A stretch of 64,000 nt of DNA from a virus (Duplodnaviria; Caudoviricetes), in IMG/VR virus record IMGVR_UViG_3300009031_000221, positions 320,001 to 384,000 of that record, one strand, 5' to 3'. Below, one piece after another: positions 5,020 through 60,650 of this stretch (the stretch's first letter is position 1; every line of letters begins with the position of its first letter). The notes below the pieces were generated by a model, which worked only from the letters and a program-made list of their open reading frames with translations, did not search any database and had not been told where the DNA came from. The position numbers and the translations under genes are program-made.

Positions 5020-6182
5020 TTATCCCCTAACTTGCGGTCAATGGATTCGATGCCTGCGAGGGCGAGGGCGGCGATTTGAACCAACAATTTGCGAGTGGTT
5101 TTACTTGTGGGGGAGTAGCCGATTTCCCGAGTCCTGAGGTGAATGAACTCACCCCAGTCCTTGTGGAAATGCAAGTCATCGTGTTCCTTTCCGCCCCACT
5201 TCTCATTCTGACGACACCGTTCAAGGGCGATACCCAGCAATACATCGTAGTCCAATGGCTCAGGGACGACACACAACTTCGGGTCCAACTTCATTGGGGT
5301 GTACTTCTGTGGCTGAGGCTTTGTCATGGATAGTACCTCCTCGATGGCATGCAGATCCCTATTCAAGTCATGGAGGGAGGAAGGGGGCAATTGCTGCGCC
5401 AGGATCGCAATACGATTACACTCCCGATAGTGTTCCCGGCTTTGTGCAAATCCACATGAGCATGTTCCGTTATTCCAAGGGAGGCAGCATTGATTACAAT
5501 GATTTCCCATGAGAGCCGCTACGTAGTGCTGCTTGATTTCCGCCTTTGTTTCTTCTAGATGCGACCTAGGACATGCATCAAGTATTGCAAGGGCGTCAAT
5601 TTCCCCATCCAATTCATGAAGGACATGGGGCGGAAGAATTGCCGCGAGTTTCTCGACTAGACGATATTCATCGTAGCCGCATCCCTCAGCTTGAGGGGCG
5701 TCGTCATCCTCGGGGCACTCGCACTCAATATTCCTCCATGGCAGGCAACATCCATCACACAATTTCGCGGCCCTGGCGGCACGAACATAGGTGTGGATAT
5801 TTTCTTTGATCTTGGCGGCAGCAATGACACCAATGGTCAGGTTCTCCTTAGGCTTATCCCCATCGAAGTATGCCTGATCCTCGACCACTTCCAACTTGGG
5901 TTTATCCGCCCTCAAGTACTTCCGTAGCTGAAGCTCCGCCTGATCCTCAATGTTGTCCAATTCCGAATCCAACTCGCGTTCAGCACCATCAGGAAGGGTT
6001 GCTGCAAGCTCCTTAATGAATTCACACACACGGTCGCGGAAGTCATTGTTGTTCCCGCAGTTGCACAACAAGTCATACCAAGGATGGCAGCATTGGCAGC
6101 ACCAACCTGCTTCCTTGGCAAGGCGGACGTAGTTATGGATTTCCGTCATGGTTTCGCGGGTGCTCATGATATGTCCTTTCAT
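5016..6182 (-). CDS. triple Cys-rich repeat protein with C-terminal MazG-like all-alpha domain
   Basis: three CxxCCxPW-x4-CxC modules; C-term IALERCRQNEKWGGKEHDD...LVQIAALALAGIE resembles phage MazG-like NTP pyrophosphatases (recalled). Confidence 0.55.
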   Translation of the reverse strand: MKGHIMSTRETMTEIHNYVRLAKEAGWCCQCCHPWYDLLCNCGNNNDFRDRVCEFIKELAATLPDGAERELDSELDNIEDQAELQLRKYLRADKPKLEVVEDQAYFDGDKPKENLTIGVIAAAKIKENIHTYVRAARAAKLCDGCCLPWRNIECECPEDDDAPQAEGCGYDEYRLVEKLAAILPPHVLHELDGEIDALAILDACPRSHLEETKAEIKQHYVAALMGNHCNQCCLPWNNGTCSCGFAQSREHYRECNRIAILAQQLPPSSLHDLNRDLHAIEEVLSMTKPQPQKYTPMKLDPKLCVVPEPLDYDVLLGIALERCRQNEKWGGKEHDDLHFHKDWGEFIHLRTREIGYSPTSKTTRKLLVQIAALALAGIESIDRKLGDK

Positions 6183-6194
6183 TTGTGTTTCCTA

Positions 6195-6623
6195 TTAGGC
6201 TTGTGCAGGTTTGGCGATAGGGCCGAATGGCGACGTGAGGTCAAGCATGCCGGCAAGTGCGACGGGGACGAGCATATCGACCTCTGCCTTCATGTCATCG
6301 AGGCTCATTCCGAAGTTATCAGGGATTCCGATAATCTTGGCACGGAGGAGTTGCTGCTCATGGATAACCCTCCAGGCATTCAGAACCATTTGAACGAATC
6401 GCTCATCAGGGATAATCCCATCACCTTGCTTGGCGACCTCGATTTCACTATCCAACGTATGGGATGCATCATCGTAGGCTTTGTGAAGGAATTCCAAGTA
6501 GGGGTCCATGTAATCCTGGGCGAGCCCTAGTTTCATGACCTGAAGGTTCAACTCGAGGTTGTGCACTAGCCCGAATAGGAGCCGTTCGGAGGATTCTTGC
6601 GTGAATGGGATCGAGATCATCAT
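6195..6623 (-). CDS. hypothetical helical protein
   Basis: 142 aa ORF. Confidence 0.6.
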   Translation of the reverse strand: MMISIPFTQESSERLLFGLVHNLELNLQVMKLGLAQDYMDPYLEFLHKAYDDASHTLDSEIEVAKQGDGIIPDERFVQMVLNAWRVIHEQQLLRAKIIGIPDNFGMSLDDMKAEVDMLVPVALAGMLDLTSPFGPIAKPAQA

Positions 6624-12985: not shown

Positions 12986-13320
12986 TAGAACTCCCGCTTC
13001 CACCACTTCTTGTTGGCGCATTGCTGCATAGCCTTGGTCAGGGCGTCGATGTGACCCAGGCCAGACAACCCGATGCATCCACGGTAGACACGCCGCAGGG
13101 ACTGCTGGACAAGGACAAGATCTTTGACCGCCTCCCGTCCTAGGAGGCGCTTGGAATTCGGGGCACGTACCCCGATTGCGGACAGGATGTTGTGCGCTTT
13201 CGACAGGTACATGGCAGCATGCTCCCGGTTCCGCAGATTGATCTGCTCCTGGGCACTGGCGAATGCTGCCTTGGCATCCTTGGCACAGATCTTGATGATC
13301 TCATCCGATACGTTCAGCAT
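12985..13320 (-). CDS. hypothetical protein
   Basis: 111 aa in coupled run. Confidence 0.55.
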   Translation of the reverse strand: MLNVSDEIIKICAKDAKAAFASAQEQINLRNREHAAMYLSKAHNILSAIGVRAPNSKRLLGREAVKDLVLVQQSLRRVYRGCIGLSGLGHIDALTKAMQQCANKKWWKREF

Positions 13321-13984
13321 TTTGCACCTCGAAAGCTTTGTCTACAAGCTCTTGGAATTTTACCCTTTGTGCGGCACGGGTATTTTGGAAGGCCAAATGT
13401 GCGTCATTGACGGAGAATGGGTGATCTCGGTACACCGCATCCGCCGCATATGTCGCAGCGCTTACGACTTGCCGCCCCACACTCAAATCGGTTGCGGTGA
13501 AAATGGCCTGGTATGCCGATTTAGCTGCCAGGGAAGGCACCCAATTACCGGCGTCCTCCAATGCCTGCCAAATAATACCTGTAAGGGCCTCCGCAGCATT
13601 GGCAAGCGAATCGTCACCCGTTTCCAGGTACCGTTTGACGATATCCGGGCATTCCCAAAGGTGAATCACCTGAAGGGCGCACCAACGGGCGAACTCCTTC
13701 AACAAGGGCGGAACTGGAATGCGATCCAAGTGCCTACGTTGGCTGGCGGCGTACTTGTTGACCGGCGTTCCATGTCCCACGATGGTCCCATCAAGCTCAA
13801 CGATATCCAGAGTCGACGGATAGAATGAGTATACCAAGGCATCGAAGGGATCAACGGAGGCATGAAGGCCATTCTCGCAAGGAATGATGATTCCGCCCTC
13901 GGTATAGGAATTACCTACCATGTAGATAATGTGCGATCTCCCCTGCATCGGACGACCATCCTTGCTGAACCAGTATGCCTTCAT
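13301..13984 (-). CDS. DUF7666-like phage protein
   Basis: MKAYWFS...VGNSYT...CENGLHASVDPFDALVY...VELDG...KYAAS, recalled phage family pattern. Confidence 0.6.
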   Translation of the reverse strand: MKAYWFSKDGRPMQGRSHIIYMVGNSYTEGGIIIPCENGLHASVDPFDALVYSFYPSTLDIVELDGTIVGHGTPVNKYAASQRRHLDRIPVPPLLKEFARWCALQVIHLWECPDIVKRYLETGDDSLANAAEALTGIIWQALEDAGNWVPSLAAKSAYQAIFTATDLSVGRQVVSAATYAADAVYRDHPFSVNDAHLAFQNTRAAQRVKFQELVDKAFEVQNAERIG

Positions 13985-14202
13985 GCTTGTGCCTCGATGT
14001 TCTTGACCGTTTGATGGAACTCCGCATCCGTAAACCACAAGGACTTCAATGCAAGAATGCCCCGGGCCTTGCAGCACGTCGGGCAATCGCAACACGTCCC
14101 GCCATGAACCTTCTTGGAGGGTACGCCCTTAGCGGCGATCCAGACCTCCCAGTCTTGGGGAGTCCAGTAGAGCGTGGATACAGTTGGAACGGGGAATACC
14201 AT
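13981..14202 (-). CDS. small Cys-rich hypothetical protein
   Basis: TCCDCPTCC; directly below motif copy at 14223. Confidence 0.55.
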   Translation of the reverse strand: MVFPVPTVSTLYWTPQDWEVWIAAKGVPSKKVHGGTCCDCPTCCKARGILALKSLWFTDAEFHQTVKNIEAQA

Positions 14203-14222: not shown

Positions 14223-14248
14223 TCTACGCTCGACGGGACAGAAGTAAG
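14223..14248 (-). promoter_or_regulatory. repeated bipartite promoter-like motif
   Basis: plus strand tctacgc-N11-gaagtaag; 21 nt above start 14202. Confidence 0.75.
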
Positions 14249-18580: not shown

Positions 18581-18606
18581 TCTACGCGGATTGGGCTAGA
18601 AGTAAG
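18581..18606 (-). promoter_or_regulatory. repeated bipartite promoter-like motif
   Basis: tctacgc-N11-gaagtaag; overlaps stop of 18582..18953. Confidence 0.75.
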
Positions 18607-19407: not shown

Positions 19408-19433
19408 TATACGCACTAGGGGCTAGAAGTAAG
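19408..19433 (-). promoter_or_regulatory. repeated bipartite promoter-like motif
   Basis: tatacgc-N11-gaagtaag, immediately after stop of last array gene. Confidence 0.7.
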
Positions 19434-19434
19434 C

Positions 19435-19680
19435 CTATCGTAGCTCATGATCATATTCATAGATCACGCCCGGGTCAGAATACCGCAGGACGCTGAATTC
19501 ATCCCGCATTATCCAGGTGTTCAATGCATCTACCTGGAGTAGAGAATGATCTGTCCACACTTCACCCTCATTGGATGGCAAGTAGATCCCCCGAAGATCC
19601 TTTCGGTTAGGTTCTGACCTGGGTTCCATGGTGCCTGTGGAAGTATCGAAGGACTTGTTGGTGTCATACCATTGCGTCAT
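19435..19680 (-). CDS. WxDxxK array protein 1
   Basis: MTQWYDTNKSF (start refined). Confidence 0.7.
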   Translation of the reverse strand: MTQWYDTNKSFDTSTGTMEPRSEPNRKDLRGIYLPSNEGEVWTDHSLLQVDALNTWIMRDEFSVLRYSDPGVIYEYDHELR

Positions 19681-19684
19681 AGGG

Positions 19685-19903
19685 TCACCATTTAAGTTTG
19701 TCATCCCAAGGAAGCAAATGGCGGATTGAACTGTCCAGATTATGATAGGTATCCCGAATGCGATGAATCTTCTGATCCGATGCTAGTAACGAGAAATCCT
19801 CGAACACACGCCCTTCGCCCTGAGGAATAGGGTCGGGGTCATTGGATTCTATAGGGTAGCCCGCCTCCCCGAATTCCTTGGTGGTGTCATACCAGCATTG
19901 CAT
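19685..19903 (-). CDS. WxDxxK array protein 2
   Basis: MQCWYDTTKEF (start refined). Confidence 0.7.
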   Translation of the reverse strand: MQCWYDTTKEFGEAGYPIESNDPDPIPQGEGRVFEDFSLLASDQKIHRIRDTYHNLDSSIRHLLPWDDKLKW

Positions 19904-19904
19904 G

Positions 19905-20117
19905 CTAATCGCCCTCATACAGGACAATGACATCCTTATCCAAGACTACATAGGGATCTCGAATGGATCTAACGTGTATTTCGGAATTCGTTATGGAGTA
20001 ATCCGGGAATACACGTCCTTCTGCGGTATCGAATCTATTATCTTCTGCCCCGGCATTCACAGGGTCTAGAGGGCTCGTGGATCCGAATCTTTTGAGGGTG
20101 TCATACCAGCTATTCAT
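19905..20117 (-). CDS. WxDxxK array protein 3
   Basis: MNSWYDTLKRF. Confidence 0.7.
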   Translation of the reverse strand: MNSWYDTLKRFGSTSPLDPVNAGAEDNRFDTAEGRVFPDYSITNSEIHVRSIRDPYVVLDKDVIVLYEGD

Positions 20118-20377
20118 CGTTTGTGCCTATAGAGGTAGCCGGTGCCTACTTGTGGTGTTCCGGATTCCAGTTCTGTATGATCGTTCAGAATCCGCATAAT
20201 GATTCCGAGGGGCTCAGGATCCCAACACTCTACAGTCGTCACATCATCCAAATAGCTTGTTTCACCATCTAATAGGCATGCCCCGGTATCGATAGCGGAA
20301 CTGACACTCGACTTGAATTGCTTGTGCTTGTCCGACCAGTTGTGGCTAAATATCCATGTCTTTTCTAGGTCATTCAT
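20114..20377 (-). CDS. WxDxxK array protein 4
   Basis: NWSDKHKQF (start refined to MNDLEK). Confidence 0.7.
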   Translation of the reverse strand: MNDLEKTWIFSHNWSDKHKQFKSSVSSAIDTGACLLDGETSYLDDVTTVECWDPEPLGIIMRILNDHTELESGTPQVGTGYLYRHKR

Positions 20378-20660
20378 GGGGTTCCACGCTGAAATATCGG
20401 TCATTGCCAAAGCCATCATCATCCGGCACGGATGCAACCTCTAACTTTGTGTCATCGTATAGGTACTGCATGATTACTTCAATCGGGCGTGGATCATCGT
20501 AGTAATCGCTAATATCCTCATCCAAACGATCCATATCTCCCACCACCAACTTGGATACAGAATCTTCCCCCTTGATATTGATGTCCCCTTCAAAGTGCTT
20601 GGACTGATCCGACCAGTTACGGCTGAAGGTGATATTTCTAGCCCTGAGGGAAGTATTCAT
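20370..20660 (-). CDS. WxDxxK array protein 5
   Basis: NWSDQSKHF. Confidence 0.7.
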   Translation of the reverse strand: MNTSLRARNITFSRNWSDQSKHFEGDINIKGEDSVSKLVVGDMDRLDEDISDYYDDPRPIEVIMQYLYDDTKLEVASVPDDDGFGNDRYFSVEPHE

Positions 20661-20929
20661 CAGGTACGCTCATACCTGAGGCTGAATGAACCTAAAGGGA
20701 CCTCCGCCATCTCAAGGGTGGATAGGTCTATCAGGTGTTTCTTGTTGACAGGGATCATGCCATGATCATTTAGACGAGCCTTCATGTCATCCCGTACAAA
20801 GGGATTCTCCCAATTAGACAGCCTTGATGCCGTGTCATCCTCGTAATTCGTAAATGATTCGAACTCTTTGCCTGCATCCGACCATTGGTAGAACGTCGTT
20901 GGGTTTAGACGATACTCGAATTTATTCAT
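20660..20929 (-). CDS. WxDxxK array protein 6
   Basis: QWSDAGKEF (start refined to MNKFEY). Confidence 0.7.
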   Translation of the reverse strand: MNKFEYRLNPTTFYQWSDAGKEFESFTNYEDDTASRLSNWENPFVRDDMKARLNDHGMIPVNKKHLIDLSTLEMAEVPLGSFSLRYERT

Positions 20930-21189
20930 CGGGCACCCTTCCAAATATCACCGGGATCCGCAACCTCTAGGAACGTGTTGTCTGGCAAAGGTATCTTATA
21001 GATGGGGATCAGATCGGGATCGGTTATCCAAGTATTTCTATCGCGTACCGCAAGAATATCTTCCCCCCGGTTCAATCTCGACACGGAATCAAGTCCGAAG
21101 TCCACAGTGGAGTAAAAATGCTTATCACAGTCCGACCAGATGGATCTATGTGTCATGTCACGGGGTTGTTCTAGGCTAATACTACTCAT
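20926..21189 (-). CDS. WxDxxK array protein 7
   Basis: IWSDCDKHF (start refined to MSSISL). Confidence 0.7.
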   Translation of the reverse strand: MSSISLEQPRDMTHRSIWSDCDKHFYSTVDFGLDSVSRLNRGEDILAVRDRNTWITDPDLIPIYKIPLPDNTFLEVADPGDIWKGAR

Positions 21190-21403
21190 GTGGGTGTAGC
21201 AACAATCCTGTGTGGCTGTATTCCTTGATGCGTCCCTCAAGGGGGTTGAGGGCGTCCTCTTGATCCTCCACAGCACCTGAATATTCAGGCACGCCACGGG
21301 TCAAGATGAAACCCTCGGTATCGGCCATGGTCATGCCAATCACCGCACCGTAGCGCTTCAGGTCATCCCACCATACGTTTCTATCTGGTTGTTGTCCGTT
21401 CAT
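21182..21403 (-). CDS. WxDxxK array protein 8
   Basis: VWWDDLKRY. Confidence 0.7.
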   Translation of the reverse strand: MNGQQPDRNVWWDDLKRYGAVIGMTMADTEGFILTRGVPEYSGAVEDQEDALNPLEGRIKEYSHTGLLLHPHE

Positions 21404-21615
21404 ATTGCCTCATAGTCGGCCTTGTCTCGAAGCCTCCGGGGATCGTCATCGCTGTCAAGTTTCCTTGCGTCATGTTCATGGGATATATCCGTGGAGAAAT
21501 CTATTACTGACGATTCATAATCAGGTATGAACTTCTGGTAATGAACCACGCTGCAATTGTTATTGTAGTCATAGCCATAGCGTTTCGTTTGGTCGAACCA
21601 ACTCATTGTTGCCAT
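21400..21615 (-). CDS. WxDxxK array protein 9
   Basis: SWFDQTKRY. Confidence 0.7.
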   Translation of the reverse strand: MATMSWFDQTKRYGYDYNNNCSVVHYQKFIPDYESSVIDFSTDISHEHDARKLDSDDDPRRLRDKADYEAI

Positions 21616-21617
21616 GA

Positions 21618-21833
21618 CTAGTATATCACCTCATCCCGGAGTTTACGCCCGTCATCCATGTTGGATAGCCATCGGCCATCACTTTTCCACAAGGAGTTTG
21701 CGCTACCCTTCATGGAGTTATCATTGAGCGTTTGGTTGTCCCGAAAATAGAGATTGGAGGGAAATACTTTCCCTCCCCCGCGGGATTCCAGGTGGAAGCT
21801 CTTCGATTGATCCGACCATGCCCAGTCTACCAT
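21618..21833 (-). CDS. WxDxxK array protein 10
   Basis: AWSDQSKSF. Confidence 0.7.
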   Translation of the reverse strand: MVDWAWSDQSKSFHLESRGGGKVFPSNLYFRDNQTLNDNSMKGSANSLWKSDGRWLSNMDDGRKLRDEVIY

Positions 21834-22036
21834 GATTCCCCCTTGTCCCGAATCCTTCTAGGGTCATGTTCACCCCCGATTGTCTTAGGTTCCGTTTCCC
21901 AATCGATTTCCCCATCCCCAAAGATCTCTATGAACCCCTTCTCCACGAGGTACCTAGGGTATCGCACCCGCCCTTCCCCATAGGAGTCCCCGCTATACCC
22001 CTTCAAGGAATCAAACCAGGACATACCTTGCATCAT
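21827..22036 (-). CDS. WxDxxK array protein 11
   Basis: SWFDSLKGY. Confidence 0.7.
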   Translation of the reverse strand: MMQGMSWFDSLKGYSGDSYGEGRVRYPRYLVEKGFIEIFGDGEIDWETEPKTIGGEHDPRRIRDKGESW

Positions 22037-22038
22037 AG

Positions 22039-22245
22039 CTATATCGCGTCCCGAAGCATTTTAGGGTCATCCCTAAACTCGAGGATGATTCTGGGTTCTG
22101 CCCTCTCATCGATTTCACAATCTTCATATTCAGATAGGGCATGTCGTCGCTCATCTACTAGGTATCTAGGAGGATGCACCCTTCCTTCCATCCATCCCCC
22201 GGTGAATTTCTTGGCCTGATCTGACCATGCCCATGCTCCAATCAT
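22039..22245 (-). CDS. WxDxxK array protein 12
   Basis: AWSDQAKKF. Confidence 0.7.
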   Translation of the reverse strand: MIGAWAWSDQAKKFTGGWMEGRVHPPRYLVDERRHALSEYEDCEIDERAEPRIILEFRDDPKMLRDAI

Positions 22246-22472
22246 CGGTTTTCCTTCTCATAATTGTCATTGATTCTTCGCCCTTCGTCGAAGATCTCGA
22301 GGGCATCACGTTCCCAGTCAAATTCGGGTTCCGTATCTACATCGTACAAGGATTGATCCCCTAATAGGTAGCGCATAGGGTATACCTTCCCTTCCAACAC
22401 ATCGAAACCAAGCTGTCCTTCTGACGGACAGTAGAAGCGTTTCGTTTGGTCATGCCATGACCTTTCTAGCAT
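22242..22472 (-). CDS. WxDxxK array protein 13
   Basis: SWHDQTKRF (start refined). Confidence 0.7.
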   Translation of the reverse strand: MLERSWHDQTKRFYCPSEGQLGFDVLEGKVYPMRYLLGDQSLYDVDTEPEFDWERDALEIFDEGRRINDNYEKENR

Positions 22473-22732
22473 GATTCGCACACTTCCAAGGAATCATAGA
22501 CAGACTCCTTGTAGGTTGTGTCGTTTATTGTCTTCCCGTGTATCTCTCTATAGCAGGGCAGGATCCAGGTTGTCTTGTCAATGACTAGATTCGGATCCCA
22601 AGTGATAGTGCTAGGGGATTCCAGCATCCCAAATACATGCTCCCATGCCTTTCTAGTATCATTCCATGCCGGGGTCATGACGAAGTACAGGCCTCCGTGG
22701 TTCCCCGTGGAATCGAAATTCAGGTTGATCAT
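22466..22732 (-). CDS. WxDxxK array protein 14
   Basis: AWNDTRKAW (start refined to MINLNF). Confidence 0.7.
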   Translation of the reverse strand: MINLNFDSTGNHGGLYFVMTPAWNDTRKAWEHVFGMLESPSTITWDPNLVIDKTTWILPCYREIHGKTINDTTYKESVYDSLEVCESC

Positions 22733-22983
22733 TGGAAATCCCCCGTACATAGTATATCTTGGAAAAGATCATCAGGCTCCCACGTATCATCTACGTCTCC
22801 ACTTTGAACATGCACATAACGGGGAAAAACACCGCCTGATTTGATGTCGGGATTCTTAGGATACCAGAATATACCGCTAGGGTGCTCGTGCTCCTCATCG
22901 GATCGCTGCCAGCACTTTCCATGTTCACTCCAATACCGATACTCAAATGCCCGAATAGGTTTGTCATGGTCAAGATCTGTCAT
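22729..22983 (-). CDS. WxDxxK array protein 15
   Basis: YWSEHGKCW (start refined to MTDLDH). Confidence 0.7.
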   Translation of the reverse strand: MTDLDHDKPIRAFEYRYWSEHGKCWQRSDEEHEHPSGIFWYPKNPDIKSGGVFPRYVHVQSGDVDDTWEPDDLFQDILCTGDFQ

Positions 22984-23240
22984 GATTCCCAGTCCCCATC
23001 GCATAGCTGCTCTTGACAATGATCCCCAGGTTCCCAATGGTCATCTATAAACCCGCCTTGAGGATGAACATAACGAGGAGATATTATGCCCGTAACACCA
23101 TCAGGGCTCATATGATATGAGTATAGACCACTAGGATTGTCATGTTCTTCCTCGGATAGTTCCCACCGCTTTTCACGTTCATTCCAATAGCGATACGGGA
23201 ACGCCTGAATCGGTTTGTCCTGGTCAAGTTCCGCATACAT
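22980..23240 (-). CDS. WxDxxK array protein 16
   Basis: YWNEREKRW (start refined to MYAELD). Confidence 0.7.
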   Translation of the reverse strand: MYAELDQDKPIQAFPYRYWNEREKRWELSEEEHDNPSGLYSYHMSPDGVTGIISPRYVHPQGGFIDDHWEPGDHCQEQLCDGDWES

Positions 23241-23259
23241 CAGACGCCATCTCCGGATA

Positions 23260-23484
23260 TCAGGGCGTGGTTCCCCCACCCTCTTCATCAACAAGCCTTC
23301 CATCAGGAATATGTGCAAATCGCGGATGGAACTTGTAGGTATGTGGCGCATCTACGTTGGATATGCCACAAAGGATTCCTGTAGGGGATTCCGCATCTAC
23401 AAAAAGCTCAACCCATTCATTGAACCCTTCATACCAATAGCGCTGAGCCCGTGTAGCAGGCGTATCATCAAGGTCATATTGCAT
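23260..23484 (-). CDS. WxDxxK array protein 17
   Basis: YWYEGFNEW (K replaced by N). Confidence 0.65.
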   Translation of the reverse strand: MQYDLDDTPATRAQRYWYEGFNEWVELFVDAESPTGILCGISNVDAPHTYKFHPRFAHIPDGRLVDEEGGGTTP

Positions 23485-23765
23485 TATGACCCCGACCGTT
23501 GTGCACTGACATAGTCCCCAACATACAGAATCTGATGTGTGGCATCATAGGGGCTATGCATCTCCTCAATGAGGTTTCCTGGGGCGTATCTGTAATCGGG
23601 CTGAATTGATCGAATGGCGTAATCGAGACGTTCGCCGTCATCATTAAAAATGCTGCTGGGGGTATCCATAGCCTCTGTCCTATAGAACCAAGTGTGGAAT
23701 TCATCGTTCCAATGCCAAAGCGGTGACGTGAAACTGAATCTCGTAGCGTCAAGATCAGATTGCAT
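23484..23765 (-). CDS. WxDxxK array protein 18
   Basis: HWNDEFHTW (K replaced by H; start refined to MQSDLD). Confidence 0.65.
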   Translation of the reverse strand: MQSDLDATRFSFTSPLWHWNDEFHTWFYRTEAMDTPSSIFNDDGERLDYAIRSIQPDYRYAPGNLIEEMHSPYDATHQILYVGDYVSAQRSGS

Positions 23766-24117
23766 TGCACACCGAAGCTGCTTTTTCCCGTGTCTTCTTC
23801 CGTTTTGCCCTCTCCGCCCTTCTCCGGTTGTCCCCCCGTTTCTTGTACTCTGCATGAAGTGCTTTCAGGGGCTCGAGCATGGAATTGATCCAGGCGATGC
23901 GTTCGGCAGGGAACTTGGTATCGAGCTTTGCTGGCGGAATGCTACCCTTGGCATTGTTGCAAGGGGCACATGCGGGCACGATGTTGCCAATATTGCTATA
24001 GCCACCCAAGGAACGTGGAACCCAGTGGTCGATGGTTATAGGTAGATCTGTACGTCCACAGTAGACACATACATGCCCAAAGTGCTGAAGGGTTGCCTGC
24101 CATGATTTAGCGCTCAT
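23755..24117 (-). CDS. HNH endonuclease
   Basis: CVYCG...TIDHWVPRSLGG...NIVPACAPCNNAKG. Confidence 0.9.
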   Translation of the reverse strand: MSAKSWQATLQHFGHVCVYCGRTDLPITIDHWVPRSLGGYSNIGNIVPACAPCNNAKGSIPPAKLDTKFPAERIAWINSMLEPLKALHAEYKKRGDNRRRAERAKRKKTREKAASVCNAI

Positions 24118-24422
24118 GTGTCATGTTTGGTCCGAACGACCCCTGGACGTTTATTGAAGTGCATATAGGACATACCTGATTCGCAGGATCCTGTAAAGTC
24201 CCCCTGCAGTATCATGTCATCCCCAGGATAGTTATATCCACCAAAGCCTCTGCCCGTATCTACTAAGGGGGCGTGATCCTCATAAATGTACATGGGATGT
24301 ATATCATTGTCATCTAGGAATGTTAGATGCCTATCAAGGACGATCCCGCTGACATCTTCATACCCCCAGGCAGAGCACCACCGCTTACCGATGTCATCCC
24401 AGTTGAATATGCCTTCTCTCAT
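24114..24422 (-). CDS. WxDxxK array protein 19
   Basis: NWDDIGKRW (start refined to MREGIF). Confidence 0.7.
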   Translation of the reverse strand: MREGIFNWDDIGKRWCSAWGYEDVSGIVLDRHLTFLDDNDIHPMYIYEDHAPLVDTGRGFGGYNYPGDDMILQGDFTGSCESGMSYMHFNKRPGVVRTKHDT

Positions 24423-24724
24423 CGGGCTTCCCACTCAGGGCTACGGAGTACCCCCGTGCCATTATGAATGACATAGTATTCGTAGCCGGGTCTATTTTCC
24501 TTCATGCCTGGAAAGTCGTCAATCATTAGAAGATCCTGTGATCCTTGTATGTACCCATTGAGATTAGGGGTTGAATCCTGAATGGGTTGTTTTGGCATGT
24601 CATCGTACATGGGAACGACAGCATTTTCAGCCCATACCCGATTTCCAGATATGATCCCACTGGAATCCTCGTAGCCCATTCCCGGGCGCCATTCCTTCTT
24701 GGATTCGTTCCAATTACGTGTCAT
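24419..24724 (-). CDS. WxDxxK array protein 20
   Basis: NWNESKKEW. Confidence 0.7.
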   Translation of the reverse strand: MTRNWNESKKEWRPGMGYEDSSGIISGNRVWAENAVVPMYDDMPKQPIQDSTPNLNGYIQGSQDLLMIDDFPGMKENRPGYEYYVIHNGTGVLRSPEWEAR

Positions 24725-25017
24725 AGCGTTCTCAACAGGATTGTCAATCCGCCATCCTCATCCCGAATTCGAATGTTACCCCGATTTATGTAACCGTTGT
24801 AATTGTAATCCCCAATCATGAGTCGCTCTTCAGGCATTTTGAAATCCCAAAGCATTGGTTCATCAAAGGGTTTATCCCTCAAGGAGGCTACCGGCAACTC
24901 CACATACAAGGGTTTACTTGTGTTGTCCCTATCCAGGTTAGGGACCTCCCAGAACCCGCTTTCAGGCTTCTGCGAGTAGATCCAAGTCTTGTACTGGTCA
25001 CTCCATTGTTGGCTCAT
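24721..25017 (-). CDS. WxDxxK array protein 21
   Basis: QWSDQYKTW. Confidence 0.7.
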   Translation of the reverse strand: MSQQWSDQYKTWIYSQKPESGFWEVPNLDRDNTSKPLYVELPVASLRDKPFDEPMLWDFKMPEERLMIGDYNYNGYINRGNIRIRDEDGGLTILLRTL

Positions 25018-25226
25018 TGGGGCTCATCATAGAGGCCTTCCTCATTTAGGATGCCTTCAGGAAGGAGGTTTTCTTTGGCGTAGATCGTAGATTCCGCATT
25101 CATCATGCGATGGTTTTTAGCGATGTTTTCTAGCACTGGAGGATTGGGCAATAGGGGCGGGAGCTTGCCTGGAATGGTTGATCCAAAGGCTTTCCATGAA
25201 TCTGCCCAGAAGGTAGTATCCGACAT
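25014..25226 (-). CDS. WxDxxK array protein 22
   Basis: FWADSWKAF. Confidence 0.7.
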   Translation of the reverse strand: MSDTTFWADSWKAFGSTIPGKLPPLLPNPPVLENIAKNHRMMNAESTIYAKENLLPEGILNEEGLYDEPQ

Positions 25227-25456
25227 TATTTGGCCTCCCCATAGAGACCGTCCCGCTTACGGATACTACATTGGATGTTCTCAGGGTCATATCCAAGTAT
25301 GAATCGGGCGTATTCATAGTCGTTAATCTCATGGATGCCTTCATCCAAGATCTGGTTATCCGCTACGATGACCGAAATCCCATCGAAACGCTGAGTGGCA
25401 CCCCAGCATTTCCAAGCATCCCACCATGCCCAATCAGATCTGGATGCTAGCGGCAT
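25226..25456 (-). CDS. WxDxxK array protein 23
   Basis: AWWDAWKCW. Confidence 0.7.
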   Translation of the reverse strand: MPLASRSDWAWWDAWKCWGATQRFDGISVIVADNQILDEGIHEINDYEYARFILGYDPENIQCSIRKRDGLYGEAK

Positions 25457-25680
25457 TCAACATCCTCCTCGTAGAGGTCATCCTCTTCCCGGAGATACCC
25501 CTCAGGCAGCCTTCCACCTTCCCACTGGTTTATGGTCTGGGCATCTACATTGGATATGTCAGCGCGGTCATCATCGCTATGCGTGGGTATATCGGAAAGA
25601 AGGCTTCCACCTTCGGATAGGGACCATGAATTGGCCCATCCTTTCCAATGGTCATACCAAACACGCCTATGGGATCTCAC
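25447..25680 (-). CDS. WxDxxK array protein 24
   Basis: VWYDHWKGW; GTG start overlaps the ATPase TGA (GTGA). Confidence 0.7.
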   Translation of the reverse strand: MRSHRRVWYDHWKGWANSWSLSEGGSLLSDIPTHSDDDRADISNVDAQTINQWEGGRLPEGYLREEDDLYEEDVECR

Positions 25681-26999
25681 AGCAACTCTTGCGCCCTGGT
25701 CAGGATGATCTCCTGGCATTGTGCGGGAGTCATGCCCTGGGTCTTGGCAACAATAACATTTGCCTCATCATCAGGCAACATGCGCTTTGCCATCTGCAAC
25801 CGACCCTCATCCGTGATGGTGTCAGGCGTGTGCAACGTGCGGTCTACACGGCCCGGACGCGGACGGGTTTCCCCTACCGTGATAGTCCCATCGGATTCCT
25901 GAACAGCCGGGCCACCCAAGGCCTGATCTACCTGATCCAGGTAGTTCGTGGTGATGATGCTCAGCAAACCGTCATTGCTGCCTACACCCTGCAACTGGTT
26001 GAGGAGGAGGTCAAACGTCGGCGGTGTGCCCTTCTGGATGTTCGGCTGCTTTGCAGTACGGGCATTGTAGACGGAATCCAGGTCTTCCAATAGGACAAGG
26101 CAAGGCACGTTCGAACGTGCCATGTCAAATGCACTGGTCAAGTCGGCGTTGGTCATCGACTGGAGGTCAAGCAGGTAGATCGGAATGTCCAAGTCAATGG
26201 CAATGGCCCGAGCCAAGGAGGTCTTGCCCGTACCCGGCCGGCCGTGAACGAGGTAGCCACGCCGCCAAGGCAAACGGTGCTCCAAGTACCACTCCTGATT
26301 GGTATTCCACTGGCGGGCATCCTCGAGGATGTGCATGACATCTGCCGGGAGCCAGAGGTCATCCGGCGCCCCCGAGTGCTTCGGATCGCCAATGTCATTG
26401 GGATCCTCGGTCAAGTAGTATGCCGTCGCGGGCTTGTCCGTGAATGGGGAAGATCCACCGTGAGTGGCACGGTCATTGCCTTCCTTTCCGCCATTGCCAC
26501 CATTGCCCCCAACGCGAATCAACTTGTAGCGATTGCGCTTGCGGTCGTTGTTGGTCTTCACGATGTCCCGGAGCATCTGTTCGAAGTCCAACGTGCCGCG
26601 GAAGTAGCGGATGGTCATCTGCGTACCATCCTTGCCACGGTCTACCCATACGGGGATCTTGATCCAACGCTTCTTGATCCAGAAGGTCAAGCCGCCGTCC
26701 TTGTCAAGCCAACGCGACAGAATCCACTGTTGCTTGCGCTTTGAACGGACGAACTTGGAAATGACCATGTATCCACGGCTTCCCAACTTCGAGGGCTTGG
26801 CAATCAGGCTGAATGCCGTGATCACTTCAGCGGACAAGTCCGCATCTACCTTGGATACGCAAACGAGGTGCGTACTCATGGTGCTGAAGAACGATTTGAT
26901 CCTGTTCCAGAAAGCGATAACCATACCGATGATGGCAGGGATTGCCCATAGCGGCAACCAATCGGGCATGAAGGACTTGAGCATATCCATGGGGGGCAT
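25677..26999 (-). CDS. BCS1-like membrane-anchored AAA+ ATPase
   Basis: N-term TM PLWAIPAIIGMVIAFW; WYLEHRLPWRRGYLVHGRPGTGKT (Walker A with BCS1-like prefix); Walker B LVLLEDLD; RPGRVD. Confidence 0.8.
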   Translation of the reverse strand: MPPMDMLKSFMPDWLPLWAIPAIIGMVIAFWNRIKSFFSTMSTHLVCVSKVDADLSAEVITAFSLIAKPSKLGSRGYMVISKFVRSKRKQQWILSRWLDKDGGLTFWIKKRWIKIPVWVDRGKDGTQMTIRYFRGTLDFEQMLRDIVKTNNDRKRNRYKLIRVGGNGGNGGKEGNDRATHGGSSPFTDKPATAYYLTEDPNDIGDPKHSGAPDDLWLPADVMHILEDARQWNTNQEWYLEHRLPWRRGYLVHGRPGTGKTSLARAIAIDLDIPIYLLDLQSMTNADLTSAFDMARSNVPCLVLLEDLDSVYNARTAKQPNIQKGTPPTFDLLLNQLQGVGSNDGLLSIITTNYLDQVDQALGGPAVQESDGTITVGETRPRPGRVDRTLHTPDTITDEGRLQMAKRMLPDDEANVIVAKTQGMTPAQCQEIILTRAQELL

Positions 27000-27012: not shown

Positions 27013-27675
27013 TTAGATGGTCATAGCTTGTTGTGCGGTAGCACATGGGTTGAATTCGACATTGGTACGCAGGAACACTTCACTTCGCAGGTCGGTATGG
27101 CAGGGATGCATGAGTTCTACAATTACATTGGTGGCGGCACACCTCGCATCTACATCTACATCATTGGCATAGTAATACGCGGCATACGCCGCAATATTAC
27201 ATGGATGTGCCCAACCTGAGATGTCCTTTTTCTTTTGACCTTCGGCTGATTCCACTGTCCGATCTTCACCGGAGAGCCACTTGTTCGCCCAATCCTTCCA
27301 ATCAACGTCATCCGCTACTTGCAATGCCGTGAGGATGCCAAATCGGACGAATTGTTCCGTTGTGGGGTAAGCGAAGTCTGTGATTTCCTTTGTGAGAGTC
27401 AATTGGGTTGACCCGCCCTTCAAGGGCTCCCTGATGATAGTGCCGTCCGCTTCTGCCTCAAACATCCGTAGGCTGGATGGATTGAAGTTGCCGTGTACCC
27501 CATTCATGAATAGAGCGAGGGCAGGATCCTCGTACCAGTGTAGGAATGATGCAGAACAAAGCCCCTGGCATATGTTACTGTGCCTATGGGCACTAGTTTC
27601 ATACGTTTCCCCGACAAACCATTGAAACCCTCTGAAGGTTTGCATGTTCTTATCAGTTAGCTTGTAAACCTTCAT
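27013..27675 (-). CDS. DUF7666-like phage protein
   Basis: start refined to MKVYKLTD; FQWFVGETY...FLHWYEDPALAL...FEAEADG. Confidence 0.55.
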   Translation of the reverse strand: MKVYKLTDKNMQTFRGFQWFVGETYETSAHRHSNICQGLCSASFLHWYEDPALALFMNGVHGNFNPSSLRMFEAEADGTIIREPLKGGSTQLTLTKEITDFAYPTTEQFVRFGILTALQVADDVDWKDWANKWLSGEDRTVESAEGQKKKDISGWAHPCNIAAYAAYYYANDVDVDARCAATNVIVELMHPCHTDLRSEVFLRTNVEFNPCATAQQAMTI

Positions 27676-28025
27676 CACTTCTCCGAAAAGTCTCGTTCGC
27701 ACCATAGGGTCGTCAGTCCGCCATCAGAATTGCCACACCATAGCATCCGGCAAAGCTGCTTGAGCCCGTTCCTGGACGTGCGATGGTCAAACTCCATGCA
27801 CTGCGTAGGGCCAGTGTTGTTGAAGATCTGGATGGCAAAATCGTAAGGGTGAATGGAATCCAGGGAGCGGACATCTTTCGGGGGCTCTGGTACTGCTGGG
27901 GCTTGTACGGGAGCTTGTACGGGGGATTGTACGGCAGCCGGAGCAACCCCCTTGTTCCCGAATAGAATCACCATCACGGCAGCCGTGCCTAATATTGCAG
28001 TGCAGAATGCTAGCAAACCTTTCAT
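27675..28025 (-). CDS. membrane-anchored/secreted protein, paralog of 15817..16080
   Basis: N-term hydrophobic helix, Pro/Ala linker, C-term CRMLWCGNSDGGLTTLWC. Confidence 0.6.
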   Translation of the reverse strand: MKGLLAFCTAILGTAAVMVILFGNKGVAPAAVQSPVQAPVQAPAVPEPPKDVRSLDSIHPYDFAIQIFNNTGPTQCMEFDHRTSRNGLKQLCRMLWCGNSDGGLTTLWCERDFSEK

Positions 28026-28285
28026 TTTCCCGCCCTCTTCAAGCATCCAGGGCAGATCCAGCCCTCAGCTTTGTTGTACTTCCAACCACGATTGACGGCA
28101 TCCGCCTTGATCTTTGGCATGGTCACTTTGCCATCGCAGTCCAATCGATCCCAATCCCCGCATTGGCCGCAGAAGACCTCATAGGCAATACGGATAACGC
28201 CCAGGATAGGGCCTGGGGTGTACCCCTCGCACTTGAACGTGGATTCAGGAAGTTTCAACATGTCCGCAACGCTGATCTCTGTCAT
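28022..28285 (-). CDS. zinc-ribbon hypothetical protein
   Basis: FCGQCG...WICPGC. Confidence 0.6.
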   Translation of the reverse strand: MTEISVADMLKLPESTFKCEGYTPGPILGVIRIAYEVFCGQCGDWDRLDCDGKVTMPKIKADAVNRGWKYNKAEGWICPGCLKRAGK

Positions 28286-28305: not shown

Positions 28306-28331
28306 TCTACGCATACCAGTCTAGAAGTAAG
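28306..28331 (-). promoter_or_regulatory. repeated bipartite promoter-like motif heading the ATPase-array operon
   Basis: tctacgc-N11-gaagtaag; 21 nt above start 28285. Confidence 0.75.
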
Positions 28332-37453: not shown

Positions 37454-37939
37454 CTATTCTACGCAGTGGCCGCGGTAAGTAAGCTCCTTGGGCCGTTCCC
37501 ACTTGACACGCTTTTTCAATGTGTCATTCCACTGGAACCATCCCCTAGACAAATCTCCCGAACCATTGCATTCGCAGTAGGCGCATCGTTCTACCCACGG
37601 TGTCACGCACGTTCCATCCATGCGGTGGATAAGGTGCAACTCGACTGAATTTGTAGACGTATCCTTGCCAATCTGATGCTCTTTAGCTGTTATGATATTC
37701 CACTCATGGTAGTTATACCAGGGCTGTGTCCCTGCAAGGTTAGGCCGCTCGGTACCTACTATGTCTATCTGCGCTACTACGTCTTGCTGAGGTTCCCCAT
37801 AACGTGCGTAGACCATGATCGGATCCCCTACCTTGAGAGGGCATGGCGGGGCCACGTAGGACTCACAACGCTTTGCATCCTCCGGGTTGTCCCATATATG
37901 ACCGCAGGCTTCACATTGGTAGGTTGTCAGAATCTTCAT
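37454..37939 (-). CDS. zinc-finger hypothetical protein
   Basis: YQCEACG...AKRCE; CAYCEC. Confidence 0.6.
   Translation of the reverse strand: MKILTTYQCEACGHIWDNPEDAKRCESYVAPPCPLKVGDPIMVYARYGEPQQDVVAQIDIVGTERPNLAGTQPWYNYHEWNIITAKEHQIGKDTSTNSVELHLIHRMDGTCVTPWVERCAYCECNGSGDLSRGWFQWNDTLKKRVKWERPKELTYRGHCVE
37458..37483 (-). promoter_or_regulatory. repeated bipartite promoter-like motif
   Basis: tctacgc-N11-taagtaag inside 3' end of 37454..37939; 31 nt above start 37427. Confidence 0.65.
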
Positions 37940-42973: not shown

Positions 42974-42999
42974 ACTACGCAATGAGAATGGGAAGTAAG
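42974..42999 (-). promoter_or_regulatory. repeated bipartite promoter-like motif
   Basis: actacgc-N11-gaagtaag right after the MTase stop. Confidence 0.7.
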
Positions 43000-47141: not shown

Positions 47142-47180
47142 ATCTACGCTGTCATTCCGAAAAGTAAGCCTTCAAGCTAC
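47142..47180. repeat. 39-bp direct repeat copy A (contains promoter-like motif 47143-47168)
   Basis: atctacgctgtcattccgaaaagtaagccttcaagctac. Confidence 0.8.
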
Positions 47181-47644: not shown

Positions 47645-47683
47645 ATCTACGCTGTCATCATGGAAAGTAAGCCTTCAAGCTAC
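47645..47683. repeat. 39-bp direct repeat copy B (contains promoter-like motif 47646-47671)
   Basis: atctacgctgtcatcatggaaagtaagccttcaagctac. Confidence 0.8.
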
Positions 47684-48418: not shown

Positions 48419-48444
48419 TCTACGCTGCTGCATCGAAAAGTAAG
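48419..48444 (-). promoter_or_regulatory. repeated bipartite promoter-like motif
   Basis: tctacgc-N11-aaagtaag; 38 nt above start 48381. Confidence 0.7.
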
Positions 48445-49271: not shown

Positions 49272-49297
49272 TCTACGCGATAGGCAATAGAAGTAAG
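49272..49297 (-). promoter_or_regulatory. repeated bipartite promoter-like motif
   Basis: tctacgc-N11-gaagtaag; 27 nt above start 49245. Confidence 0.75.
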
Positions 49298-56463: not shown

Positions 56464-57024
56464 TTATTTGGTGTTCTTTTTCTTGGGCTTCTTGACGAGG
56501 GGCGGCGGTGGAGGTACTTCAGCGTCCTCCCACTTGAACGTCATGATGGCGTTCAATGCTTCCCCTGCCTTGTTGACGAGATCCCATGAGCCTTTCATGG
56601 ATTCCTTCTTGACTTGTTTGTCCTGTACATCTACCCAACCCAGGGCATTATTAGCTGACCAAAATGCTTCAGCCATCTCCCGCCACCGGGCACTCAGGAC
56701 TTTCAACCCCATCTTGTCACAATCCAAGATGTTATCGAGTGCTGCATTGAATGACGCCATCAAGTGGTAGTGGATGATTTCCTTGCGGAGAGGCTCTACT
56801 GCATCCCAACAGATTTTCGCATATAAAGTGGTATCATCATTGAGGAAATCGACTGCGACATCGATCGCTTCCATCATTCCCTGTGAACGTTCGACATGGA
56901 TCGGGCAAGGATACTTCTCACTCATAGCATCCTTGCGTTCCTGGTCATATCCCGTCCACAACCCTCGCAAGGTGTGGTATGCCGTTTCCTTGAACTGAGG
57001 GTCAATCTGATTCCAAGACCTCAT
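56464..57024 (-). CDS. hypothetical helical protein
   Basis: 186 aa; poly-Pro/Lys tail. Confidence 0.6.
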   Translation of the reverse strand: MRSWNQIDPQFKETAYHTLRGLWTGYDQERKDAMSEKYPCPIHVERSQGMMEAIDVAVDFLNDDTTLYAKICWDAVEPLRKEIIHYHLMASFNAALDNILDCDKMGLKVLSARWREMAEAFWSANNALGWVDVQDKQVKKESMKGSWDLVNKAGEALNAIMTFKWEDAEVPPPPPLVKKPKKKNTK

Positions 57025-60624: not shown

Positions 60625-60650
60625 TCTACGCGATCCAAGATAGAAGTAAG
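60625..60650 (-). promoter_or_regulatory. repeated bipartite promoter-like motif
   Basis: tctacgc-N11-gaagtaag; 18 nt above start 60607. Confidence 0.75.

Follow-up and report, generated by a model that had tools for sequence, protein, structure and literature searches.

The internal proteins IPI–IPIII of phage T4 carry a capsid targeting sequence, and T4-like phages have a variable IP locus. The WXG100/Esx substrates of type VII systems, each a helical hairpin that has W-x-G at its center, are encoded beside the FtsK-like ATPase EccC/EssC. The small-ORFan expansions of giant phages include a zinc-ribbon expansion of about 35 copies in Bacillus phage G (Iyer et al., 2021, PMC7824862), a study that also noted phage orthologs of BCS1, for which a role in the movement of folded proteins has been proposed. 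The array described here, 24 small genes downstream of a putative Bcs1-type ATPase gene in the 536,053-bp genome of a groundwater phage, has points in common with each of these. As in the phage G-type expansions, dozens of small, fast-diverging, clade-restricted paralogs are collected in one huge phage genome. However, the array is an unrelated sequence family without a zinc ribbon, its only strong common element is a predicted 8-residue hairpin, and its genes stand in strict tandem in one operon with a conserved link to the ATPase. The T4 internal proteins likewise are small proteins from adjacent genes that differ from one another except for a short common element, but they have no sequence similarity to the array proteins, their element is an extreme N-terminal peptide whereas that of the array is a predicted hairpin that is internal in related phages, and the array lies far from the head genes under another promoter class. 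The resemblance to WXG100/Esx proteins lies in small acidic paralogs of about 100 aa that have one short conserved motif and genes beside a membrane-anchored ATPase; the array differs in its predicted beta-hairpin and putative Bcs1-like ATPase.

The array lies in the 64,000-nucleotide stretch analyzed here (the window), and all features below are given in window positions and are on the minus strand. Of the 24 consecutive ORFs described in the initial annotation, all were recovered, with lengths of 68–102 aa and an extent of 19435–25719 at the widest, but the run is broken between members 6 and 7 by an HNH endonuclease gene (23755–24117; Pfam HNH, 1.8e-11, and HNH_5, 2.3e-10; PHROG HNH families) that has an ATGA overlap with member 6. 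The motif W-x-[DE]-x-x-[KNH]-x-[FWY] was found in 24/24 ORFs, its sixth position being K in 22, N in member 8 and H in member 7. Our numbering starts at the ATPase end, and members 8 and 7 are thus 17 and 18 of the initial annotation, which counted from the opposite end. Internal ATG starts were assigned to several members, which gives the above lengths and places the motif onset at residues 4–23. A public gene caller predicted 23 of the 24.

For member 1 (25447–25680, WYDHWKGW), identified by motif and gene caller, the GTG at position 25680 is the probable start codon; with it the gene overlaps the ATPase stop codon by 4 nt and encodes 77 aa (90 aa from the ATG at 25719). Motif, gene caller and HMM concur on members 2 (25226–25456, 76 aa, WWDAWKCW), 3 (25014–25226, 70 aa, WADSWKAF) and 4 (24721–25017, 98 aa, WSDQYKTW). 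Member 5 (24419–24724, 101 aa, WNESKKEW; motif, gene caller) pairs in its body with member 6 (E 5e-09), and member 6 (24114–24422, 102 aa, WDDIGKRW) was assigned by motif, start choice and body comparison. The start of member 7 (23484–23765, 93 aa, WNDEFHTW) was set by N-terminal homology to members 8–10, as that of the gene caller falls 3' of the motif. Motif and gene caller support member 8 (23260–23484, 74 aa, WYEGFNEW), and member 9 (P0001; 22980–23240, 86 aa, WNEREKRW; dN/dS 0.21) pairs in its body with member 10 (E 1e-19). Motif and body comparison identify members 10 (22729–22983, 84 aa, WSEHGKCW), 11 (22466–22732, 88 aa, WNDTRKAW), 12 (22242–22472, 76 aa, WHDQTKRF), 13 (22039–22245, 68 aa, WSDQAKKF), 15 (21618–21833, 71 aa, WSDQSKSF), 16 (21400–21615, 71 aa, WFDQTKRY), 18 (20926–21189, 87 aa, WSDCDKHF; also start choice), 19 (20660–20929, 89 aa, WSDAGKEF), 20 (20370–20660, 96 aa, WSDQSKHF), 21 (20114–20377, 87 aa, WSDKHKQF), 22 (19905–20117, 70 aa, WYDTLKRF) and 23 (19685–19903, 72 aa, WYDTTKEF), with dN/dS in addition for members 10, 13, 22, and 23. 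Member 14 (21827–22036, 69 aa, WFDSLKGY; motif) was used for structure modeling, member 17 (21182–21403, 73 aa, WWDDLKRY) is supported by motif and left-out HMM, and member 24 (19435–19680, 81 aa, WYDTNKSF), the one missed by the gene caller, by its HMM match and body pairings with members 22 and 23.

In a six-frame scan of all 536,053 bp the array genes account for 24 of 34 motif matches, and an HMM of the 24 proteins found no further family member at E<1 among 7,173 genome ORFs. HMMs from which a whole subfamily had been withheld still placed 18 of the 24 withheld genes at ranks 1–5 among the remaining genome ORFs; other withheld genes ranked 7, 9, 19, and 88, and one was missing from the hit list. 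The bodies also align beyond chance, as post-motif sequence gave 38 phmmer pairs at E<0.01 against 0–3 in 20 shuffles, every one joining members at most three positions apart. The highly diverged bodies are not unrelated and have in common weak P-x-[YF] (15/24) and [ILMV]-R-D (10/24) elements, both above all 1000 shuffles. A repertoire with one fixed element and fast-diverging bodies, as initially proposed, is thus borne out as a real homologous family by the motif and the body alignments. The acidic, aromatic-rich composition was likewise upheld: the pI is 4.3–5.1 in 23 of 24 members, D, E, W, and Y are enriched, A, V, and L are depleted, GRAVY is negative in all and Cys makes up only 1% of the bodies.

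Comparisons between members gave dN/dS values of 0.21–0.59 with dS of 1 or more, and synonymous codons within the motif vary freely (GAC/GAT 10:10, AAG/AAA 15:7). At the level of sequence, these data show the 24 genes to be protein-coding, old paralogs under purifying selection. The label hypervariable is accordingly to be replaced by one of old divergence, rather than ongoing diversification. The same data also make it exceedingly improbable that the ORFs are spurious and the motif the product of a repeated DNA or RNA element, a view to which the low structure confidence would lend itself, because dN/dS stays under 1 at saturating dS and the motif varies synonymously. Further evidence against it is that the 24 ORFs tile 6.2 kb of one strand with start/stop overlaps, that independent gene calls concur and that other phages carry homologs at the same position.

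No known family was found for the array proteins in Pfam, PHROGs or PADLOC, by a word search of 5.8 billion proteins or when 1.84 billion proteins were searched exhaustively with the HMM, in agreement with the first reading, which recognized none. On these searches the array proteins, which are small, acidic and rich in aromatic residues, make up a phage family that is so far undescribed. The sole outside HMM match was P0130, a 678-aa Reg_prop beta-propeller protein with AWNDxTKxY, which fits the array motif, in each of its seven repeats. We rejected P0130 as a family member since the match spans profile positions 7–39 only and it is a repeat protein; the likeness is one of local structural motif, and as such counts in favor of the predicted hairpin described below. 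The fixed N-terminal element, variable remainder and many tandem small genes would also suit RiPP-like precursors, in which, as in prochlorosins, a conserved leader serves one modifying enzyme and the cores are hypervariable. We consider this very unlikely given that no recognizable RiPP-modifying enzyme was found within the operon (Pfam, PHROGs, NCBIfam), that D, E, W, and Y abound in the bodies, which have only 1% Cys, that members are 68–102 aa long and that the motif is internal in relatives.

The AF2 model of member 14 has a beta-hairpin (strands 6–8 and 13–15) exactly on the motif, with pLDDT of about 75 over residues 1–20; this part of the model, built on a 39-sequence alignment, is of moderate confidence. 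The remainder is low-confidence coil (overall pLDDT 63), and the ESM Atlas models scored 0.25 and 0.32. As to whether the motif is a shared beta-hairpin in a common fold, a check proposed in the first reading, the hairpin is predicted and a common globular fold is not. The only strongly conserved element, the 8-residue pattern, is predicted to be a self-contained beta-hairpin in which W forms a cross-strand pair with F/W/Y and the turn is closed by D and K, and the rest of the members is predicted to be largely unstructured. The hairpin could also be merely the one foldable core of the family and not a docking element.

Directly upstream of member 1 is the gene for a putative membrane-anchored Bcs1-type AAA+ ATPase of 440 aa (25677–26999; Pfam AAA, 6e-18). 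Among PDB sequences it is closest to Bcs1 and Cdc48. Its AF2 model (pLDDT 90.3) includes a long helix near the N-terminus (residues 19–45) and has full-length Bcs1 as its top 11 fold matches (410–481 aligned columns); Pfam BCS1_N was undetected by sequence. The predicted architecture, an N-terminal helix, beta-rich middle domain and single AAA module, is that of mitochondrial Bcs1 and the phage BCS1 orthologs, but the mitochondrial client, the Rieske protein, has no counterpart at the array locus. An array of tagged small proteins beside a Bcs1-type ATPase is unreported in the one paper on phage BCS1 that full-text search found. A single co-fold of the ATPase with one member (n = 1) scored 0.00, which speaks neither for nor against binding.

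At the head of the unit stands a promoter-like motif specific to this phage, CTTACTTC-N12-GCGTAG (28307–28331, exact pattern match), followed by an 87-aa Cys-rich, zinc-ribbon-like ORF (28022–28285; predicted by the public gene caller, unmatched in PADLOC and NCBIfam), a protein of 123 aa that combines a hydrophobic helix at its N-terminus with a Pro/Ala-rich linker (27675–28046; no family match in Pfam, PHROGs, PADLOC or NCBIfam and no homolog in related loci) and a DUF7666 protein (27013–27675; PF24703, 2.9e-08) whose gene has no synteny in relatives. No promoter motif was found inside the unit, and the next one, a variant ending GCGTAT (19409–19433), shares 1 nt with the final stop codon of the array and marks the unit's end. 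From the ATPase to member 24, 20 of 25 junctions overlap by 1–11 nt and the largest gap is at most 19 nt. This layout shows the array and ATPase, as read from sequence, to be one tightly coupled polycistron. Of the 125 genome copies of the promoter-like motif, whose spacing is invariant, 113 lie beyond 200 kb; the motif is rare in the 0–200 kb part that is home to the protease, portal, and terminase genes, and absent directly upstream of these three head genes.

Related phages (L004, L006/L007, L011, and L013; ATPases 47–68% identical) retain the association with the ATPase, since one to seven small genes with W-x-[DE]-x-x-[KR]-x-W lie directly downstream of it. The best HMM matches in related loci are these small genes directly behind the ATPase, and the strict motif has 11 matches in 21 k positions near related ATPases vs. 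4 in 178 k elsewhere. Within the window, the first small gene downstream of the L007 ATPase is matched best by member 1 (E 3.3e-06), and so are L013_1780 and L004_4922. In L005 (ATPase 59% identical) small acidic genes without a clean motif lie downstream. In 80 loci with more distant phage Bcs1-like ATPases (≤32% identity) the motif occurs at background frequency only, and no downstream array of small genes was seen in any of the seven full-length loci inspected, so that elsewhere the ATPase functions without proteins of this kind.

In the relatives the motif is placed 25–45 residues from the N-terminus, which argues against the members being virion cargo with the hairpin as a capsid-targeting or loading tag. 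Under this explanation the head would package the members and eject them along with the DNA, and membrane-proximal loading would be aided by the Bcs1-like ATPase, a role that has been speculated for phage BCS1 (Iyer et al., 2021, PMC7824862). A short common element on variable small proteins does resemble the logic of the T4 internal proteins, but about 190 kb separate the array from the head module, whose protease, portal, and terminase genes lie at 140–154 kb of the genome and lack the array's promoter class, and we regard virion cargo as unlikely.

Another possible, if somewhat doubtful, explanation is that members are independent host-takeover or anti-defense effectors, such as protein or DNA mimics that block a host factor, with the hairpin only a structural nucleus and the ATPase adjacency a matter of timing or ancestral position. 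This would be consistent with members being acidic, small and fast-evolving, with copy numbers that differ between relatives, with the non-late promoter class of the operon and with distant Bcs1-like ATPases lacking these neighbors; nor does the single co-fold lend support to the ATPase as a partner. However, the place behind the ATPase, often translationally coupled, is kept down to 47% ATPase identity despite the near-unrecognizable divergence of the small proteins. In addition, they match no PADLOC, Pfam or PHROG family and have no stable predicted fold, unlike known DNA mimics; Ocr and ArdA are folded proteins. Nothing pointed specifically to the anti-defense library that had been suggested (PADLOC negative).

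Our tentative preference is for the hairpin as a shared handle, probably for the ATPase, with variable acidic tails that differ in target. Counting for the handle are the motif specificity, homology beyond the motif, coding signal, coupling, hairpin, ATPase model, conserved linkage and promoter timing. Counting against it, adjacency and joint transcription could reflect shared timing only, distant Bcs1-like ATPases are without the array and L005 is without a clean motif. The array itself would be a lineage-specific expansion, by local tandem duplication, from the one to seven copies kept behind the ATPase in related phages. Through the hairpin every member would engage one shared partner, most likely the ring of the neighboring Bcs1-like ATPase on the cytoplasmic side of the host's inner membrane, either as clients that are translocated, inserted or remodeled, or as adaptors that retarget the ATPase. 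The divergent acidic tails may then give each member a target of its own, in host or phage, outside the late phase of infection.

The motif W-x-[DE]-x-x-[K/N/H]-x-[FWY] is present in each of the 24 minus-strand ORFs at 19435-25719, and these array genes account for 24 of the 34 matches to it in a six-frame translation of the whole genome. We number the members 1-24 from the end nearest the ATPase gene, opposite to the initial annotation. The ORF and motif scan confirmed that annotation's count of 24 ORFs with lysine at motif position 6 in 22 of them, the exceptions being a histidine in member 7 (formerly 18) and an asparagine in member 8 (formerly 17). The 24 ORFs are not the unbroken run that had been described, as an HNH endonuclease gene (23755-24117, minus strand) lies among them. 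An ATGA overlap joins it to member 6, its overlap with member 7 spans 11 nt, and it could have inserted between paralogs as a homing endonuclease. In several members, internal ATG codons of the longest possible ORF restore N-terminal similarity to neighboring members; with these starts, the proteins are 68-102 aa long and the motif begins at residue 4-23. Their acidic, Tyr- and Trp-rich character and their lack of signal peptides were both borne out: the pI is 4.3-5.1 in 23 of 24 members, Asp, Trp, and Tyr make up 10.8, 3.6, and 5.1% of residues (6.4, 1.5, and 2.9% in the genome's long ORFs), and none of the 24 has a hydrophobic N-terminus. Ala, Val, and Leu are depleted. That the members are RiPP-like precursors, as for example the prochlorosins are, is very improbable given that Cys makes up 1.0% of residues and that no recognizable modifying enzyme is encoded in the operon.

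The members are homologous beyond the motif. We removed the motif and everything N-terminal to it and compared the remaining bodies all-against-all by phmmer, with 20 shuffles as the control. The bodies aligned beyond chance in this shuffled-control check, which the initial annotation had proposed, giving 38 directed pairs at E<0.01 versus 0-3 in the shuffles. All 38 pairs join members no more than three positions apart, forming the blocks {1-3}, {4-6}, {7-11}, {12-16}, {17}, {18-21}, and {22-24}, and this confinement to near neighbors is the signature of serial local duplication. Two weak elements cross the blocks, P-x-[YF] (15 of 24 members) and [ILMV]-R-D (10 of 24), both of them above all 1000 shuffles. 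We also built HMMs from which one whole block was withheld; of the 24 genes withheld in this way, 18 ranked 1-5 against the other genome ORFs (7,173 ORFs of at least 40 codons), with single E-values that were weak.

The dN/dS values of the closest member pairs are 0.21-0.59, at a dS of about 1 or higher (for the closest pair of all, 52% identity, dS 1.57, and dN/dS 0.21), which indicates that the copies are old and under purifying selection. What the initial annotation called "hypervariable" is therefore old divergence and not active hypermutation. Recent targeted diversification of the DGR type was rejected based on the divergence of that closest pair and on the 100% DNA identity of two public copies of the locus. 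Synonymous codons vary freely within the motif (GAC/GAT 10:10, AAG/AAA 15:7), showing that it is the protein, rather than a nucleotide element, that is under selection. A public gene caller predicted 23 of the 24 members, missing member 24 and starting member 7 past the motif; the probability that the members are spurious ORFs is negligible.

The parent genome, a 536,053-bp IMG/VR record, is rated complete by CheckV. The protein of member 9 is present on 12 public contigs, and the two that were retrieved, both from one groundwater study, are the copies whose DNA is 100% identical to the window. The locus sequence is held by four DNA runs of a single groundwater study and by no RNA runs, and a nucleotide search of the locus against 50,697 GenBank phage records gave no match. 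Elsewhere in the window are a second AAA-domain protein (57021-58250, minus strand; 409 aa; Pfam AAA 3e-09) and, near the window end, an Orn/DAP/Arg decarboxylase-like gene (60656-61804, minus strand) and a peptidoglycan-binding M15 peptidase that is a likely endolysin (61945-62880, plus strand).

Within the databases searched, the array proteins appear to belong to no known family, in agreement with the initial annotation, whose author recognized none. Across all 24 members, the best E-values were 0.036 with Pfam and 0.033 with PHROGs, each from one member and at chance level, and a PADLOC scan of five members gave one weak, chance-level match and nothing credible. The window's own proteins were all that a word-seeded profile search recovered from 5.8 billion proteins; repeating the search with an array alignment to which proteins of related phages had been added (A2) gained two proteins, both from the related contig L011. 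An exhaustive HMM search of 1.84 billion representatives produced 14 matches, of which 13 have array-member lengths, those retrieved being the window's own. The HMM search suggested by the initial annotation thus mapped the array to no characterized family, and similar small genes were found in related phages. The 14th match is a 678-aa protein with seven Reg_prop propeller repeats, each carrying AWNDxTKxY; we rejected kinship with this protein and consider the likeness a local structural resemblance. Members 5 and 14, searched for look-alikes in the ESM Atlas, matched unnamed viral clusters at most. Outside the window, the sequence WESAPDVSK[VI]FNG ends a 615-codon, highly acidic, scaffold-like frame (genome 139,063, minus strand) and recurs inside an unrelated 420-codon frame (genome 130,048, minus strand). 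It has D-x-x-K-x-F in common with the array motif with a different spacing of the W, and the likeness is probably a coincidence.

The AlphaFold2 model of member 14 (39-sequence alignment; pLDDT 63, pTM 0.26) has a single regular element, a beta-hairpin with strands at residues 6-8 and 13-15, exactly at the motif; the rest is low-confidence coil with no helices. For members 5 and 14, the models provided by the ESM Atlas reach pLDDT values of 0.25 and 0.32. These models point to a small hairpin as the fixed element, with bodies for which no common globular fold is predicted, so that of the two structural features that the initial annotation had raised the hairpin at the motif is supported and the common fold is not. 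In the hairpin, the Trp and the final aromatic residue of the motif would be cross-strand neighbors, and the Asp and Lys would flank a two-residue turn. WXG100 (type VII) substrates are helical hairpins of ~100 aa with a central W-x-G, whereas the model of member 14 shows a beta-hairpin and coil, without helices; as the members also have no W-x-G and no Pfam WXG100 match, we rejected this assignment.

The gene directly upstream of the array (25677-26999, minus strand) encodes an ATPase with a single, classical AAA module (Pfam AAA 6e-18), in which GxxGxGK and ED are invariant across a 52-sequence alignment. By sequence its top PDB matches are nearly tied, Bcs1 at 3.6e-22 and a Cdc48-like protein at 3.2e-22; the module was assigned as closest to Bcs1. 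In the AlphaFold2 model (pLDDT 90.3), a long N-terminal helix leads into a beta-rich middle domain and then the AAA module. Full-length Bcs1 chains make up its eleven best fold matches, with alignments of 410-481 columns and TM scores up to 0.60/0.66. These are followed by four isolated Bcs1 AAA-domain chains and then by Bacillus subtilis YjoB. A hydrophobic stretch at about residues 15-31, with basic residues after it, falls at the helix modeled at 19-45 and points to a single N-terminal transmembrane helix. The beta-rich residues 46-163 co-align with the full-length Bcs1 chains; since Pfam BCS1_N (PF08740) was not detected in the sequence, the match of the middle domain to Bcs1 rests on the model. 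Phage BCS1 orthologs have been noted before (Iyer et al., 2021, PMC7824862).

Other contigs of metagenomic phages, including one whose phage is at least 511 kb long, carry homologs of the ATPase at 45-68% identity. An IMG/VR related-locus search with the ATPase alone as query found no relative, and the array alignment was nowhere conserved enough to serve as the query. The adjacency of ATPase and small genes is conserved. Wherever flanks were available, the related ATPases are directly followed by small genes with the motif or close variants of it, with seven motif-type genes in L006/L007, six or seven in L011, four or five in L004, and one in L013; L012 is doubtful, and in L005 the small acidic downstream genes have no clean motif. 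In the related loci, the strict motif occurs at 5.2e-4 per position within 2.5 kb downstream on the same strand versus 2.2e-5 elsewhere, and the best matches of the array HMM are the same downstream genes. In L006, the gene immediately preceding that of the ATPase (6137-6346) encodes a 69-aa protein with WDENTKMW, indicating that the family can occur on either side of the ATPase. In the relatives, the motif is found 25-45 residues into the protein and is preceded by an acidic leader in which [FY]-x-D-P recurs (RFLDDP, RFDDPF, YFGDPEDL; L006:7901-9216, L007:2668-3661, L004:4467-5622). This leader is lost in most window copies, with a related M-x-x-[DE]-L-D start kept in members 7-10.

The first gene behind the ATPase in L007 has member 1 as its best match (E 3.3e-06, the strongest cross-phage match), as does, more weakly, the lone small gene of L013 (E 0.005), which suggests that the slot directly behind the ATPase, that of member 1, is the ancestral position. 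Between phages the small proteins score 2-18 bits and the ATPases 430-700 bits. In 80 IMG/VR loci whose ATPase is at most 32% identical, the motif is at background (1.2e-5 per position), the array HMM found nothing better than E 0.42, and none of seven full-length distant ATPases inspected has a small-gene array downstream. By this comparison of loci, the ATPase-array module is specific to one clade and not general to phage Bcs1-like genes. Several ATPase homologs at 32-34% identity (such as database proteins P0032, P0036, and P0043) are on contigs binned into Planctomycetota or Rubripirellula MAGs, possibly a hint to the host range of the ATPase lineage or a result of phage contigs being binned with hosts.

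The array is the distal part of an operon. A bipartite, phage-specific motif, CTTACT[TA]-N13-[CT]GTAG, has 125 copies in the genome with invariant spacing and is promoter-like and not of the sigma70 type. From the copy at 28307-28331 (minus strand), the order is an 87-aa Cys-rich ORF, a 123-aa membrane protein, a DUF7666 protein (27013-27675, minus strand), the ATPase, and the array, and the following copy (19409-19433) shares 1 nt with the stop codon that ends the array. Of the 25 gene junctions between the ATPase and member 24, 20 are overlaps of 1-11 nt, and nowhere is the gap wider than 19 nt. Pattern matching placed further minus-strand copies in the window at 14224-14248, 18582-18606, 37459-37483, 42975-42999, 47144-47168, 47647-47671, 48420-48444, 49273-49297, and 60626-60650. 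The first of these directly precedes a DUF7666 paralog (13301-14095, minus strand), so that a copy stands before one paralog in the window and at the head of the unit that contains the other. DUF7666 is not conserved next to the ATPase in the relatives. As no other gene of the operon, the transmembrane protein included, has homologs in the related loci, we rejected the transmembrane and DUF7666 proteins as conserved partners.

This promoter-like motif is distributed unevenly, 113 of the 125 copies lying beyond 200 kb; the other 12, within the first 200 kb, divide into seven on the strand of the head genes (minus) and five on the opposite strand. The standard Pfam models for tail sheath, terminase, and HK97 capsid had no match in the genome, and it was PHROGs that placed the head maturation protease, portal, and large terminase at 140-154 kb. 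As no copy stands directly before any of these three head genes, the motif probably represents the phage's early or middle promoter class, and we infer that the array is in a non-late expression class. This bears on the possibility that the members are virion cargo, a virion-loading role having been proposed in general terms for phage BCS1 (Iyer et al., 2021, PMC7824862): non-late expression weakens that reading, which we consider improbable. Capsid targeting of the T4 type was rejected because the motif is not at the extreme N-terminus (residue 4-23 here, 25-45 in the relatives) and because the head module is ~190 kb away and lacks the operon's promoter class.

We tentatively favor the view that the array is a lineage-specific expansion of hairpin-tagged proteins. 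The hairpin would serve as a common handle, most likely bound by the neighboring Bcs1-like ATPase, which the members would serve as clients or as adaptors, and the variable acidic tails would direct them to different targets. A co-fold of the full-length ATPase (52-row alignment) with member 14 (39-row) scored 0.00, which speaks neither for nor against binding. Only slightly less probable is that the members are independent effectors whose position behind the ATPase is only historical. A role of the ATPase and hairpin proteins as a phage protein-export or membrane-delivery system is unlikely; in it, the Trp-clamped beta-hairpin would be recognized by a heptameric, Bcs1-like ring seated in the inner membrane of the host, and the 24 small acidic effectors would be moved across or into the membrane to reach the periplasm, the envelope, or the assembling particle.

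Expansions of small ORFans are known in giant phages, such as the ~35 zinc ribbons of phage G (Iyer et al., 2021, PMC7824862). New in this case are the protein family, the Trp-clamped hairpin as its signature, the extent of its expansion, and the coupling to a Bcs1-type ATPase, which is conserved. Many large phages encode Bcs1-like ATPases, and the searchable literature on them holds comparative-genomics inference only, with no client, recognition signal, or role described. This locus, along with its smaller versions in relatives, provides a testable candidate set, in which an ATPase is followed by proteins with a tiny, probably autonomous beta-hairpin. If the link is positional only, the array is another of the little-understood small-ORFan expansions that fill giant phage genomes, and would lend itself as a supply of small acidic proteins to be screened for host interactions. 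If the export reading is true, it would be the first known client set and recognition signal for any non-mitochondrial Bcs1 homolog. If the hairpin is a handle, it would represent a first recognition code for a Bcs1-type machine of the bacterial world, and would show a huge phage multiplying one tagged scaffold into many effectors.
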